Below are positions 5,379-10,164 of a stretch of DNA of 64,000 nucleotides, one piece after another. Each line of letters starts with the position of its first letter. Position 1 is the stretch's first letter. The notes under the pieces are model-generated. The model ran no database searches and was not told where the DNA came from. It saw only the letters and a list, made by a program, of their open reading frames with translations. This DNA is from a virus: the IMG/VR virus record IMGVR_UViG_3300045988_151198. One strand, given 5' to 3'. A program made the position numbers and the translations under genes.

Positions 5379-6536
5379 CTACAGGATGAAAGAGACTCTT
5401 TCAAGTCGGCACTGGCTCTTGCCTTTGTAGTCGTCATGAGCCTTGACTTTCGCTTTTTTGATAGTATACGTGCCGCCTCTCTCGACATCGGGAAAAGCGG
5501 AAGTTTTCCACACAAAAGGAATGCCCGCGCTTGACTTCATGATGAAGATATGCTGTGCACCGTACATACCTTCAAACGTGAATATCTTTTCAATGGTGAC
5601 TTCCTCATTAGCAATAACCGTGCCAATGGCGGGAAATTCCACGGTAGATTTTTCTTCCGTCTTTTCCACAACAACCTTTTCCTCTGTCTTTTCGGACTCG
5701 AAAGCCTTGCGGATATCAGCAAGAGCGCCGCGAATCCCCGCCGCGATAAAGCCGAACACACGCTTTTCGCAGCGCTCGGAACTCATAACGCGAAAAACGT
5801 TTTCCTGATATTCTCCCCTGCGATCGGAATTTTTAATAAATTCGATAGCTTTCATAGCTTTTTCGGTATGCTCCGCTGTAACGGTAAAATCGTAATCACG
5901 AGGGAAAGAGCGATAATGTTCGTCAACAAAATCCATGATCTTTGAAGCTGTGCTTCCCGGCGTGTTAGACTTCACAAAACCGAAATCGGAGATCAGCTTA
6001 ACAGCTATGGCGCAGATCTCCACGGTAGCATAATGCGGAGAGCTCGCATAATGTCCATCGTCATCAGAATCCCCAAGGATTCCGGAATTTTCCGCGAAAA
6101 ATTCGAGCGCGCCCGCTTCCTTTCCCAGAAAATCGATAATGCAGGACGTTCCCACCTGAATAATCTTTCCGGCGGCGTCGGAAAGCAGGATGGTCTTAGA
6201 ACGCTTTCTTTTCGTCCCGCAGTGATCACAGATCTTACGGTCGGCAAAAGGAGTCAGATCAACATCTTCCGTAAAAAGAGGGTTACGGAAGATAAGGCCG
6301 CCGCTTGCATGGTCGACCACGGCAGCAAAAGTATAGCCTGAAATCGCGGGATATACGCCATCAATATGGAACTCCACAAAATCCTCATATTCGTAAGTCC
6401 CTTCCGTCCTTACGGAAAATTCACGTTCAACCATGATAGAGAAAGCAGGAGCAAGCCCACGCTTTTCAGCGCGGCGGTTCAGACTTTCGACCTTATCAAC
6501 AATCTTAGCGAACGTAGACTTGTGGCGGATAGGCAT
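5379..6536 (-). CDS. hypothetical protein (about 385 aa); start placed at ATG 6536, which carries the conserved RBS
   Basis: Track ORF is 5379..6569; the ATG at 6536 (MPIRHK...) is preceded by AAGAGGTTATACGTC; no recognisable motifs. Confidence 0.5.
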   Translation of the reverse strand: MPIRHKSTFAKIVDKVESLNRRAEKRGLAPAFSIMVEREFSVRTEGTYEYEDFVEFHIDGVYPAISGYTFAAVVDHASGGLIFRNPLFTEDVDLTPFADRKICDHCGTKRKRSKTILLSDAAGKIIQVGTSCIIDFLGKEAGALEFFAENSGILGDSDDDGHYASSPHYATVEICAIAVKLISDFGFVKSNTPGSTASKIMDFVDEHYRSFPRDYDFTVTAEHTEKAMKAIEFIKNSDRRGEYQENVFRVMSSERCEKRVFGFIAAGIRGALADIRKAFESEKTEEKVVVEKTEEKSTVEFPAIGTVIANEEVTIEKIFTFEGMYGAQHIFIMKSSAGIPFVWKTSAFPDVERGGTYTIKKAKVKAHDDYKGKSQCRLERVSFIL

Positions 6537-6981: not shown

Positions 6982-7380
6982 TTATCCCCTATATTCCATA
7001 CAGACAACGGGACCTTCCTCAACCAATTCAAACCCTTCACTAGCATAAAAAGCAATGAGGGCTTCAAGGTCCATGCCGTCAGAGTCGGGAACCGCCGCAA
7101 GCTTCAAAGGGAGGTGCGGAAATTCCGCCTTTGCATAGGCTATGGCGGCTCTAAGCAACGCCCTTCCATGCCCTTGACGCCGATACTCGGGGATCACATC
7201 AAGGCCGCTTATCAGTACGTAAGGCACTTCATTGTAACCCTCCGGATTTTCCGGAGAACAAGGGACATCAATAAACTCGATATCATGCGACAAGGTACAG
7301 ACGCCGAACGAGGACTTAAAGATAATGCCCACACGCTTGTCTACGGTGATAGTGATCTGACTCATAATAAATTCCTCCAT
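6982..7380 (-). CDS. GNAT-family N-acetyltransferase
   Basis: Motif RRQGHGRALLRAAIAYAK matches the acetyl-CoA-binding motif A of GNAT enzymes; size is consistent with the family. Confidence 0.65.
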   Translation of the reverse strand: MEEFIMSQITITVDKRVGIIFKSSFGVCTLSHDIEFIDVPCSPENPEGYNEVPYVLISGLDVIPEYRRQGHGRALLRAAIAYAKAEFPHLPLKLAAVPDSDGMDLEALIAFYASEGFELVEEGPVVCMEYRG

Positions 7381-7954: not shown

Positions 7955-8425
7955 TTGCGACGCCAAACAAAATCCATCGAAGCGCATAAGCAAGATGGTA
8001 CATACAATTCTACGAAGCATGGAGTGGACGTTCCATTGGCGGAAGGACCGCTGAGGAAAATCAATTGGGACAAGATGTCCTCGGAAGACATTTATACTAC
8101 GATTGCTGATGTTATCGCGCAGAAGGGACTTGACCATGCTGAATACTCTCTGGCTTTGGAACTCTTAGTTTATGCGGTGAATAGGATGCTTAAACTCCGC
8201 AGGGATCTGAAATCCCAAGGCGGAGAGACATATATTACCCCGACAGGTATTCGGAAAAACAATCCTACAGCGAAACTTGTTATGGAAGCAGAGAAGCAAG
8301 TTGATACGCTCCTGCAAAGGTTTGGGCTTACTCCGGATTCTCGTAGTCGAGTAGCTAGGAAGAAGGGAGAACTTAATCTAGGGAGTGAAGATTCTTTCGG
8401 ATCTCCGGAAGGTTTCTTCAATTAA
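7955..8425 (+). CDS. terS: phage terminase small subunit, P27 family (TTG start)
   Basis: Family hallmark motif ...QRFGLTPDSRSRV... plus the upstream pattern (G..K.NP); RBS AAGGAG precedes the TTG. Confidence 0.7.
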   Translation: MRRQTKSIEAHKQDGTYNSTKHGVDVPLAEGPLRKINWDKMSSEDIYTTIADVIAQKGLDHAEYSLALELLVYAVNRMLKLRRDLKSQGGETYITPTGIRKNNPTAKLVMEAEKQVDTLLQRFGLTPDSRSRVARKKGELNLGSEDSFGSPEGFFN

Positions 8426-8457: not shown

Positions 8458-8485
8458 TTGACAAGTATAAAAATCTAAGTATAAT
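8458..8485 (+). promoter_or_regulatory. near-consensus promoter TTGACA-N16-TATAAT driving the first tRNA cluster
   Basis: TTGACA at 8458..8463 and TATAAT at 8480..8485. Confidence 0.65.
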
Positions 8486-8499
8486 CTATTTCAGTAAAA

Positions 8500-8569
8500 G
8501 GTGTTGTTGGCTACATGGGAAAAGCTACGCTTTCGAGCGTTACTGTAGGTTCGACTCCTATGGGCACCA
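8500..8569 (+). tRNA. tRNA-like element with canonical T-arm (GGTTCGACTCC) and 3' ACCA, but a 6-nt anticodon loop in every fold tried and an imperfect acceptor stem
   Basis: T-stem GTAGG/CCTAT; the acceptor GGTGTTG/GGGCACC pairs 6 of 7 using two G-U wobbles; the anticodon arm ACGC-TTTCGA-GCGT gives a 6-nt loop. Confidence 0.35.
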
Positions 8570-8658
8570 TCAAAAAGATAGACTCGTATTTCAATTGATG
8601 TAAGGTAAGTCTGTAACCAAGAAAATGCTGGCTTAAATCATATCGAGTCTATCATTAT

Positions 8659-8735
8659 GCGACCGTAACTCAATTGGCAAGAGTAGCCGACTTTTAATTG
8701 GCAAGTTATGGGTTCAAGCCCCATCGGTCGCACCA
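8659..8735 (+). tRNA. tRNA-Lys (anticodon TTT)
   Basis: Hand-folded cloverleaf: acceptor GCGACCG/CGGTCGC, D-stem ACTC/GAGT, anticodon stem GCCGA/TTGGC with loop CTTTTAA, T-arm ATGGG-TTCAAGC-CCCAT, discriminator A, encoded CCA. Confidence 0.7.
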
Positions 8736-8761
8736 TAAATCTGTAAAAAGGAGATTCATAG

Positions 8762-9028
8762 ATGGACACGACCACTGATTTCTTTGAAAGAATGTTTTCT
8801 TGTGAAGGTTGGGATCAGCTTGACACTTTCGACTTTGTGTTTTATGATTGCACTTTGAACAGGGATATTGGAGATTTTAAGGAAGGAGACAAGATTGACG
8901 CTATTACTGTCCTTTTTAGTGTCAGCAAGATCGAATTTGCGACGTTCATTGAGAACAAGGATGGTATGGATGAAGAAAAAATCATTTATTCCGCAACGCT
9001 TGTGCCCTTTATGGTCGAACGACCTTAA
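8762..9028 (+). CDS. hypothetical protein (88 aa) embedded between the two tRNA clusters
   Basis: ORF with RBS AAAGGAGATTCATAG-ATG. Confidence 0.45.
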   Translation: MDTTTDFFERMFSCEGWDQLDTFDFVFYDCTLNRDIGDFKEGDKIDAITVLFSVSKIEFATFIENKDGMDEEKIIYSATLVPFMVERP

Positions 9029-9046
9029 AAACTATTAAAAAAGTTC

Positions 9047-9075
9047 TTGACATTCTGATTTAAGTTTAGTATAAG
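9047..9075 (+). promoter_or_regulatory. promoter TTGACA-N17-TATAAG driving the second tRNA cluster
   Basis: TTGACA at 9047..9052 and TATAAG at 9070..9075. Confidence 0.6.
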
Positions 9076-9113
9076 GTTTCCATCAATTCATTCATACGTT
9101 TGCTCCTCGAATC

Positions 9114-9147
9114 GGGAGACGCAATTTCCTCCTTTATTGCGTCTCCC
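9114..9147 (+). other. perfect 12-bp stem-loop (GGGAGACGCAAT / ATTGCGTCTCCC) in the leader of the second tRNA cluster; no immediate U-run, so read as an RNA structural or processing element rather than a terminator
   Basis: Exact inverted repeat with a 10-nt loop, just downstream of the 9047 promoter. Confidence 0.45.
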
Positions 9148-9262
9148 ACAACAAAAATTTTTAACAGAAGAATCGGCTTATAATCGGGAAGTTATATAGA
9201 ATTTTATAGTACCGTGGGGCACACGGGAACTGAGAGTAATCTCTACGCTTGTCGACATCAGG

Positions 9263-9339
9263 TAATGATGGTTGAAGCAAGAATCCCATACATTTATACA
9301 TGGGGAGTGCCAAAGGTTCGAGTCCTATCGACTCTACCA
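9263..9339 (+). tRNA. tRNA-like element (T-arm GGTTCGAGTCC, 3' ACCA); the 5' acceptor strand could not be paired by hand
   Basis: T-loop TTCGAGT, discriminator A and CCA at 9337..9339; no complementary 5' acceptor was found within 70 to 110 nt upstream. Confidence 0.3.
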
Positions 9340-9343
9340 TCAT

Positions 9344-9422
9344 GCTCTCGTGGTGCAACTGGCAGACACATCGGTTTTAAGCACCGTACAAGTGATGGGT
9401 TCGACTCCCTCCGAGAGTACCA
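9344..9422 (+). tRNA. tRNA with anticodon TAA (would read Leu UUA/UUG), but it lacks the long variable arm expected of a Leu tRNA, and the T-stem has mismatches
   Basis: Acceptor GCTCTCG/CGAGAGT (first pair G-U), anticodon stem CGGT/ACCG with loop TTTAAGC, T-loop TTCGACT, CCA at 9420..9422. Confidence 0.5.
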
Positions 9423-9432
9423 AAAAAAATAT

Positions 9433-9508
9433 TGTGGGATAGTTCAGTTTGGTAGAACACTTGACGTTAATCAAGGTGTTGGCGGTTCAATCCCGTCTCC
9501 CACAGCCA
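9433..9508 (+). tRNA. tRNA with good acceptor, D and T arms, but the anticodon loop folds as 6 nt (CGTTAA) or 8 nt (ACGTTAAT); anticodon identity unresolved (GTT or TTA/TAA)
   Basis: Acceptor TGTGGGA/TCCCACA, D-stem GTTC/GAAC, T-arm GGCGG-TTCAATC-CCGTC, anticodon stem CTTGA/TCAAG, CCA at 9506..9508. Confidence 0.5.
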
Positions 9509-9523
9509 GAAGAATTAAAAACG

Positions 9524-9613
9524 GGACAGGTGCCAGAGTCAGGCTTATTGGGGCGGTCTTGAAAACCGTTGGCGCAGGAGCGTCCGTGGGTTCGAATCCT
9601 ACCTTGTCCGCCA
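9524..9613 (+). tRNA. tRNA-Ser (anticodon TGA), type II with a long variable arm
   Basis: Acceptor GGACAGG/CTTGTCC, anticodon stem GCGGT/ACCGT with loop CTTGAAA, variable arm GGCGC-AGGA-GCGTC, T-arm GTGGG-TTCGAAT-CCTAC, CCA at 9611..9613. Confidence 0.7.
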
Positions 9614-10164
9614 AATTTATCGATATTTATACGGGATACGAAGTAGAGCAGACAAGTGCGTTGAAAAACTGACGGATATGTCGAAAGACATAGACTAATA
9701 GTAGCTGCGACGCAATAGACCTTCTATGACGATAGATAGAACTAGCATATCAAACTCGTGGTTACGATGCTTCGTTACTTGCAAGACCCTATTAAATATC
9801 GATAATATTTCGATGGATTGAGTTGATCTACGTATCTCCCTGTATGGATCGAGAACGCAAGATCCTCTTCATCGATAAAAGCCAAACGTGATCTTGAAAG
9901 GAACGATTCGACCTCCTTGCGTAGCCTATCGAGGTCCGTTTGGCCCCACAAATCTCCGGGTGTAGTTTAAGAGCTTAGTCAGGATCTAGATGAGAAAACC
10001 GCATACTAGTAGGCACTCATTGAAAGAAGTGATATTGATTCTGACGGGCCACAGTTAAAACCTCTGCGCGAAGTAAACAGCTTCGAAGAAAATGCGAATG
10101 CTTGATCAGCATTTTAGGTGCAATTCCCGCCACTCGGACACAATTAAAAAAAAGGAATGGTGTA

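Follow-up and report, generated by a model that had tools for sequence, protein, structure and literature searches.

A polymorphic tRNA island with a U33-less tRNA-Asn and other unusual variants in a gut phage lineage

Clusters of tRNA genes are known from phages T4 and T5, and the T4 tRNA region also encodes the extra stable RNAs C and D. Lys and Asn isoacceptors are classic nuclease targets, and classical frameshift suppressors (sufD, SufJ and similar) carry an extra nucleotide, which gives an 8-nt anticodon loop and four-base reading. Two reports describe phage tRNAs that escape host anticodon nucleases through changes in the anticodon loop (van den Berg et al., 2023, PMC10264068; Azam et al., 2024, PMC11555353), and in bacterial and phage genomes Y RNAs, which are tRNA-like, flank the Ro60 genes (Chen et al., 2014, PMC4201824). 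Here we describe the tRNA island at positions 8458-9613 of the IMG/VR virus record IMGVR_UViG_3300045988_151198, whose 64,000 analysed nucleotides are called the window throughout. The island is of a known kind, a phage tRNA cluster, and it contains unusual variants: a persistent allele of tRNA-Asn with U33 deleted, a tRNA(UAA) of class-I shape, and cloverleaves without an anticodon.

The window was compared with 17 related gut-metagenome phage contigs (18 contigs including the window). Nine of the relatives were retrieved from IMG/VR via their terminase protein (97-99% protein identity), and the eight others by scanning metagenome contigs with a 23-nt anchor from tRNA-Ser. Individual contigs are designated L002 and so on where they have to be told apart.

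tRNA genes, alleles and relics of the island

An earlier interpretation made from the letters alone (the sequence-only reading) had listed six elements with a tRNA-type T arm and CCA end, several of them with anticodon loops of unusual length, and had left room for errors of hand folding. All six are present on the plus strand, with T-loops at about 8549, 8708, 9317, 9397, 9483 and 9588, and the folding was correct according to ARAGORN, Infernal and RNAfold. The tRNA-type features are:

8500-8569, plus strand: TLE-1, a tRNA-like cloverleaf with acceptor, D and T arms (ARAGORN only at -ps80)
8577-8653, plus strand: putative decayed tRNA(CAU) paralogue, with D-arm and T-arm remnants, from comparison with intact tRNA(CAU) genes in relatives
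8659-8735, plus strand: tRNA-Lys(UUU), canonical, CCA encoded (ARAGORN; Rfam, 66.2 bits)
9165-9197, plus strand: internal fragment of tRNA(CAU) type, comprising the 3' strand of the D stem, the anticodon arm and the variable region (comparison by eye)
9198-9313, plus strand: 116-nt insert of unknown origin, with several hairpins, which splits the rearranged gene (alignment with relatives)
9314-9339, plus strand: 3' remnant of tRNA(CAU), comprising the T arm, the 3' acceptor strand and ACCA (homology with the intact genes starts at 9314)
9344-9422, plus strand: tRNA(UAA), 'Leu' by anticodon, allele A (ARAGORN; Rfam, 34.7 bits)
9433-9508, plus strand: tRNA-Asn(GUU) allele without U33 (ARAGORN, 'tRNA-?(Asn|Stop)(tt)'; Rfam, 51.8 bits)
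9524-9613, plus strand: tRNA-Ser(UGA), canonical class II, CCA encoded (ARAGORN; Rfam, 45.1 bits)

One of the odd members is the element at 9433-9508. ARAGORN and RNAfold agree with the sequence-only reading on its perfect acceptor, D and T arms and on its odd anticodon loop, which is the 6-nt CGUUAA at 9465-9470; the minimum-energy structure given by RNAfold is a cloverleaf in which this loop caps a 5-bp anticodon stem, and the 8-nt alternative that had also been proposed needs the closing A-U pair to be opened. The orthologue is a canonical 77-nt tRNA-Asn(GUU) in 11 of the 17 related contigs, and the genes of L002, L021, L022, L024 and L026 differ from that of the window solely by one extra T, which makes their loop CUGUUAA and places the deletion between 9465 and 9466. 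G34, U35, U36, A37, A38 and the discriminator G73 are all kept, as is the position within the island, and the Rfam score falls from 65.6 bits for the canonical L002 allele to 51.8 bits for the U33-less one. Because it is only one T apart from the canonical genes of the relatives, the element is a tRNA-Asn(GUU) that has lost U33 by a derived single-base deletion. The same allele is also present in L004, L020 and L027-L030, and a scan of all IMG/VR with this D arm and the deleted loop found it only in this lineage.

U33 is nearly universal in tRNAs and makes the U-turn that positions the anticodon. Since a 6-nt loop without this residue is left, the U33-less tRNA-Asn most likely cannot present its anticodon properly, and we infer a null or strongly weakened allele. 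Besides those of the island, the 64-kb window and the 9.8 kb before its start showed no tRNA gene, so the strain manages without a canonical phage tRNA-Asn.

Other states of the tRNA-Asn slot were observed in single relatives. The orthologue of L023 (L023:1530-1606) has four substitutions, all in the anticodon stem-loop, with the loop UUGAUGA, the anticodon GAU and G37, and is otherwise identical to the allele of L025 and L010. In L009, an open reading frame (ORF) for a 151-aa HNH-endonuclease-like protein (L009:7429-7884) stands in place of the tRNA-Asn gene.

A second odd member traces to a rearranged gene. In 12 relatives an intact 76-nt tRNA(CAU) gene lies just upstream of the tRNA(UAA) gene; in the window its 5' acceptor and D strands are gone, and the two remaining pieces are separated by the insert at 9198-9313, for which Rfam returned no match. 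The internal piece (9165-9197) has the anticodon arm AUCGG-CUUAUAA-UCGGG, with the anticodon UAU, and its counterpart in the 12 intact genes reads GCAGAAG A UCCGG CUCAUAA CCGGG AAGUU. The stretch at 9263-9339, described previously as a tRNA-type element with no pairable 5' acceptor strand, indeed received no call from the tRNA finders and no Rfam hit. The strand is missing because the tRNA(CAU) gene has been rearranged, and the core of the element is the 3' remnant. With an intact orthologue in relatives and an essential part lost, tRNA(CAU) of the window reads as a gene remnant. The rearrangement is shared by L002, L008 and L020.

Within this region, an 8-bp perfect complement (9266-9273 and 9336-9343) would pair the ACCA end of the remnant with upstream sequence, and relatives show just two substitutions across this helix and the hairpin next to it, 9268 A>G and 9284 T>C, both of which keep the pairing. 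At window positions 9179-9181 the anticodon is UAU in the rearranged copy versus CAU in the intact gene. Because the rearranged copy carries UAU, the intact tRNA(CAU) gene may encode not a tRNA-Met but a lysidine-dependent tRNA-Ile2 that reads AUA.

The tRNA(UAA) gene was correctly read as lacking the long arm of a tRNA-Leu: its variable region is 6 nt long, its D stem has 3 bp and its T stem a bulged U, and A73 and an encoded CCA are present. Two very divergent alleles exist; the window, L008 and L020 carry allele A, all others carry B, and both alleles keep the anticodon UAA, A73, a short variable region (5-6 nt) and the bulged T-stem U, whereas the long variable arm with its own stem that marks class-II tRNA-Leu is absent from both. 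Between the alleles, 6 of 20 pairs are changed on both sides, 98.8% of the cells in the comparison are paired, and no slid control came close. These compensatory pair changes between divergent alleles argue for a maintained, functional tRNA of unusual shape. To our knowledge, all known bacterial and phage tRNA-Leu are class II, and the identity of the synthetase that charges a maintained class-I tRNA(UAA) with a bulged T stem is an intriguing question.

TLE-1 scores 24.4 bits against the Rfam tRNA model RF00005, under the gathering score of 29 bits, with E=0.026 in a 1.5-kb search. The 6-nt loop attributed to it is what relaxed ARAGORN gives; read directly, its 'anticodon arm' ACGCU-UUCG-AGCGU is a 5-bp stem capped by a UUCG tetraloop instead of an anticodon loop. 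The element lacks an encoded CCA (A-UCA) and is present in 7 contigs, where its identity to relatives (93-94%) is about equal to that of the flanking coding DNA; the T arm is damaged by a 1-nt deletion in L020 and by G53A in L023. The spacer between TLE-1 and tRNA-Lys contains the stretch at 8577-8653, on which ARAGORN and Rfam made no call. This stretch retains a 10-bp acceptor-like stem, GAUAGACUCG/CGAGUCUAUC (acceptor AGACUCG/CGAGUCU), a D-loop AAUUG and a degenerate T arm, and its 3' end is A-UCA where a tRNA would have A-CCA. Its fold z-score is -2.9, and that of the whole spacer (8570-8658) is -3.4, the long stem accounting for both values. Between strains, TLE-1 and the decayed spacer reach 92-94% identity versus 99-100% for the intact tRNAs of matching allele type, and both lack the encoded CCA that is present in every intact tRNA of the island. 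On this comparison, TLE-1 and 8577-8653 appear to be older tRNA-derived relics.

The default run of ARAGORN called four genes in the island, Lys(UUU), Leu(UAA), 'tRNA-???(tt)' and Ser(UGA), and the same four loci cleared the RF00005 threshold (66.2 bits for tRNA-Lys, 34.7 for 9344-9422, 51.8 for 9433-9508 and 45.1 for tRNA-Ser); these calls and scores agree with the canonical folds that had been proposed for tRNA-Lys(UUU) and tRNA-Ser(UGA). A 7-nt anticodon loop with U33 is present in tRNA-Lys, tRNA(UAA) and tRNA-Ser, and missing from 9433-9508 (CGUUAA) and 8500-8569 (UUCG tetraloop); the standard tools, which the sequence-only reading had suggested running, rescued no canonical 7-nt loop. Thermodynamic folding was not discriminating, the minimum-energy folds of TLE-1 and tRNA(UAA) not being cloverleaves (z-scores of -1.2 and -0.8). 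An intron-containing tRNA was rejected, as the intron mode of ARAGORN returned nothing except a spurious 'Ile' on the minus strand whose 577-nt 'intron' runs across other genes, and the tRNA, transfer-messenger RNA (tmRNA) and Rfam searches gave no support for a tmRNA identity of the fragments.

Every slot of the island is polymorphic across the 18 contigs. The first slot holds either TLE-1 with the decayed spacer (7 contigs) or a 511-aa protein gene with a second tRNA-like element, TLE-2 (11 contigs); tRNA-Lys is intact in 16/18 contigs (99-100% identical); the tRNA-Asn slot is canonical in 11, without U33 in 3, and has the loop UUGAUGA in L023; tRNA-Ser is identical in most relatives, with a range of 94-100% across all. 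The island is a mosaic with many independent lesions. In L009 (6700-6765) and L024 (2380-2445), which differ in island haplotype, tRNA-Lys has a 24-nt deletion between direct repeats CUCAAUUGGCAAG, which takes the 3' half of the D arm together with the anticodon arm.

Gene turnover and alternative readings

We consider that the odd members of the island probably reflect ordinary gene turnover in a dispensable tRNA cassette, and that they are not designed suppressors. Turnover is the most economical reading because the cassette is polymorphic and its odd members trace to lesions or relics of intact genes, and it builds directly on what is observed, namely the gene structures, their orthology with intact genes and the spread of the alleles in the population. 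The cassette of this lineage would supply five decoders, Lys(UUU), tRNA(CAU) (Met, or Ile2 if lysidine-modified), tRNA(UAA), Asn(GUU) and Ser(UGA), transcribed from two putative sigma-70-type promoters. In the window strain, Lys, tRNA(UAA) and Ser look intact, and Asn and tRNA(CAU) would have been hit by mutation: tRNA-Asn would have lost U33, presumably abolishing decoding, and tRNA(CAU) would have lost its 5' third and gained the 116-nt insert. The cassette would be dispensable since the host presumably supplies the same tRNAs, and the two relics are probably just transcribed and cut out by tRNA-processing enzymes. If this is true, the island offers a natural example of fast gain, loss and damage in a tRNA cassette within one gut-phage population. 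It also cautions that 'tRNA-???' calls can be real alleles, not errors.

Several observations weigh against such a simple account. The U33 deletion is not transient, as it is fixed in a strain found in four samples, and it occurs also in L020, a 93-95% identical strain, and in L004, which has a different island haplotype. Variable sites of the Asn gene are concentrated in the anticodon stem-loop (6/17, versus 5/56 elsewhere; Fisher p=0.015), and this clustering counts against simple decay because decay should scatter them evenly. The rearranged tRNA(CAU) region is 99% conserved and, because its pairing is preserved as well, may be more than debris. Finally, one T-stem pair of TLE-1 is compensatory, G-C in the window versus U-A in the others.

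A different explanation, which we regard as doubtful, is that the odd members are non-decoding tRNA mimics, in which the tRNA body is kept and the anticodon loop destroyed or replaced; they could serve as decoys, which the sequence-only reading had also named, or as sponges against host defences that target tRNAs, or else be bound by a Ro60-like protein in the manner of Y RNAs. The clustering of changes in the anticodon stem-loop, with the remaining gene nearly invariant, speaks for this, as do the four outcomes seen in the tRNA-Asn family, which are U33 loss, the GAU/G37 loop, a C32U loop and the mini-hairpins of TLE-2. So does a proposal that altered-loop phage tRNAs evade anticodon nucleases (PMC10264068).

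Further points for such mimics come from the relatives. In 11 of them (L002-L007, L019, L021, L022, L024 and L026) a gene for a 511-aa DUF2828/DUF7788 protein lies between the terminase gene and tRNA-Lys (L002:6771-8306). An AlphaFold model of the protein (pLDDT 86, pTM 0.86) matched only Ro60/TROVE structures in the PDB, best 1yvr (E=1e-7, TM 0.59) and further 9kop, 9nfa, 9l5y (Thermus phage Ro60) and 2nvo, the next hits having E > 0.04. Sequence searches with the DUF2828 protein against the PDB gave nothing, and the Ro60 link is thus by structure only. The model indicates that DUF2828, a family of > 6000 members mostly on phage-sized contigs, is a Ro60-like ring plus vWA protein. Directly downstream of this gene in the 11 relatives lies TLE-2 (L002:8324-8391 and equivalents), a 68-70-nt tRNA-Asn paralogue scoring 33.8 bits in Rfam, whose acceptor, D and T arms are almost unchanged and whose anticodon arm is swapped for 4-bp hairpins with A-rich loops of 4-5 nt, in three alleles. 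As Y RNAs are known beside Ro60 genes (PMC4201824), TLE-2 is a candidate Y-RNA-like partner derived from a tRNA duplicate.

DUF2828 neighbourhoods were sampled at three loci. In L031, an unrelated DUF2828 phage contig, the gene sits within a 12-tRNA array, and 350 nt downstream of it a sub-threshold YrlA-like arrangement of T arm, stem and D arm is found (L031:5815-5879, 32.6 bits), a further point for the mimics. In L034, also unrelated, the DUF2828 gene is followed closely by three aberrant tRNA-like sequences (5956-6018, 6130-6205 and 7069-7140) missed by ARAGORN. Anticodon-defective tRNA bodies may therefore have a use in this phage group.

For the window itself the mimic explanation fits less well. 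The window strain has no Ro60-like gene, a tblastn search with the relatives' protein against the window and its 9.8-kb extension giving nothing, and Rfam YrlA (RF02553) is not above chance there: the sole match has 17.7 bits against a gathering score of 69 and straddles two tRNAs, running over the T arm of the first and the D arm of the second. TLE-1 shows no sequence relationship to TLE-2 and diverges at the same pace as its flanks, and both elements are disrupted in relatives (in TLE-2 of L004 the D stem is affected, and in TLE-1 of L020 and of L023 the T arm). The annotated part of the window revealed no gene for tRNA repair and none related to nucleases. The nuclease-evading phage tRNAs of van den Berg and Azam, moreover, reportedly keep a 7-nt loop and still decode. 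That the lineage repeatedly turns its own tRNA genes into functional non-decoding mimics, altering the anticodon arm only, as Ro60 partners or decoys, seems unlikely to us; TLE-2 would then be the partner of the Ro60-like protein in the relatives, and the U33-less tRNA-Asn and TLE-1 would be decoys in the window strain. If the pairing of TLE-2 with the Ro60-like protein is true, it would provide a testable RNA partner for the large DUF2828 family and a Y-RNA-like molecule that arose from a tRNA duplicate.

It is less probable still that the U33-less tRNA works as an ordinary, less efficient tRNA-Asn whose 6-nt loop is tolerated by asparaginyl-tRNA synthetase and ribosome. The retention of G34, U35, U36, A37, A38 and G73, the persistence of the allele in several lineages and the unaltered rest of the gene fit this idea, but the lost residue is the nearly universal U-turn former, and the covariance-model score is down by 14 bits. 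We know of no natural bacterial elongator tRNA with a 6-nt loop.

A recoding tRNA is very improbable. The 6-nt (or 8-nt) loop would here cause frameshifts, or the tRNA would read UAA as sense with an anticodon UUA taken from the 5' side, as the ARAGORN label 'Asn|Stop' might suggest; a change in loop size can indeed shift the reading frame in engineered and suppressor tRNAs. Known frameshift suppressors, however, have expanded loops, and the genomes of near-identical relatives use the canonical tRNA. A scan of in-frame extensions past stop codons, in which frameshift sites were not searched systematically, returned only adjacent genes, the in-frame TAA lying between normal neighbours with their own start codons; stop-codon suppression was rejected on this ground. 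The frameshift-suppressor meaning that had been given to the odd loops is not supported either, for the 6-nt loop is a derived one-base deletion of a canonical tRNA-Asn, contracted rather than expanded, and there are no readthrough candidates beyond ordinary adjacent genes.

Although single-base indels are the commonest assembly error, we give practically no credence to a sequencing or assembly artefact and reject it, as the deletion lies outside any homopolymer and recurs in assemblies that were made independently and by different assemblers (ENA ERZ28595483, ERZ28595599, ERZ27272207 and OGQP01001449.1, Logan SRR3992958 and IMG/VR 3300045988_157179).

Promoters, neighbouring genes and occurrence

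The tRNA island lies on the plus strand directly after a Terminase_4/phrog_83 gene (7955-8425), and includes these further features:

8458-8485, plus strand: promoter P1, TTGACA-16-TATAAT, a 12/12 consensus match in the promoter scan, kept in relatives
8762-9028, plus strand: orf88, a small protein gene inside the island, phrog_4991 (unknown function)
9047-9075, plus strand: promoter P2, TTGACA-17-TATAAG, for a second tRNA transcript, seen by eye, kept in relatives
9114-9147, plus strand: leader hairpin with a 12-bp stem and the loop UUCCUCCUUU (anti-Shine-Dalgarno-like), fold z-score -5.4

Strong promoters had been noted at first sight, and two are recognizable, P1 with its full consensus and P2 by eye; P2 is absent from the list of the promoter scanner, which demands T as the last base of the -10 element where P2 has G. 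P1 transcribes TLE-1, the decayed tRNA(CAU)-like spacer and tRNA-Lys, and probably orf88 too, a gene with 89-99% identity among relatives. The leader hairpin directly follows P2 and is kept in all relatives.

Past tRNA-Ser, about 490 nt (9614-10100) contain no convincing ORF. In most relatives the stretch is complete and 96-99% identical, and three retain it only in part, one of them at 82% identity. An Rfam search past tRNA-Ser up to 9900 gave no match. The stretch could be another non-coding RNA region. The Terminase_4 gene by the island, which is small-terminase-like, stands apart from the gene for the large terminase; in relatives the latter is located about 8.5 kb past the position of the window end (L038:18868 onward). 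About 1 kb upstream of the island, on the minus strand, lies a GNAT acetyltransferase gene (6982-7380); some toxins of the GNAT family act on charged tRNAs by acetylating them.

An exact-protein look-up with orf88 led to an 86.7-kb scaffold from the human gut (ERZ28595483, SAMN05414982) that is 100% identical to the window over 6.3 kb, and 99.9% identical strains were found in three more samples. Among GenBank phages, megablast and blastn found no close relative, only generic tRNA-Ser matches and a distant primase; INPHARED held no close phage, and the tRNA-Ser anchor was absent from the genome collection scanned. Relatives of the endolysin are all distant (<=49% identity), in assorted Gram-negative lineages. 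In the codon usage of the phage, AAA makes up 60% of Lys codons, AAT 72% of Asn, TTA and TTG together 30% of Leu, TCA 12% of Ser and ATA 16% of Ile.

Comparison with known systems

A literature search found no report of phage tRNAs with a 6-nt loop or of class-I phage tRNA-Leu, and each odd member resembles a described system in part. Animal-mitochondrial class-I tRNA-Leu shares the anticodon UAA and the short variable region with the tRNA(UAA) of the island, which differs from it by its bacterial/phage context and by the extra bulged U in the T stem. The U33-less tRNA-Asn has a non-7-nt anticodon loop in common with frameshift suppressors, but contains one nucleotide fewer, and the stop-readthrough scan revealed no target site. 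Like the nuclease-evading phage tRNAs, the island shows variation concentrated in the anticodon loop and involves Lys and Asn isoacceptors, whereas its tRNA-Asn has lost U33. The locus of the relatives recalls Ro60/YrlA modules, with an anticodon-less tRNA-like RNA (TLE-2) beside the gene of a Ro60-fold protein. The window differs from such modules by lacking a Ro60-like gene, and TLE-1 and TLE-2, unlike YrlA, are plain non-permuted cloverleaves with no separate Ro-binding stem, far below the Rfam threshold.

With tRNA pseudogenes and other 'tRNA-???' calls, the Asn allele shares the intact orthologue in relatives, the single lesion in the anticodon loop and the drop in score; it stands apart from them in that the lesion is shared unchanged by diverged lineages and samples, with no further decay. 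The island as a whole resembles clusters of the T4 and T5 type, in which closely spaced tRNA genes with encoded CCA are likewise promoter-driven and biased towards A/U-ending codons, small non-tRNA RNAs and homing-endonuclease genes are interspersed, and content varies among related phages. It differs from these clusters in that 2/5 of its decoders are visibly mutated, in its class-I tRNA(UAA) and in having a Terminase_4 gene as neighbour.

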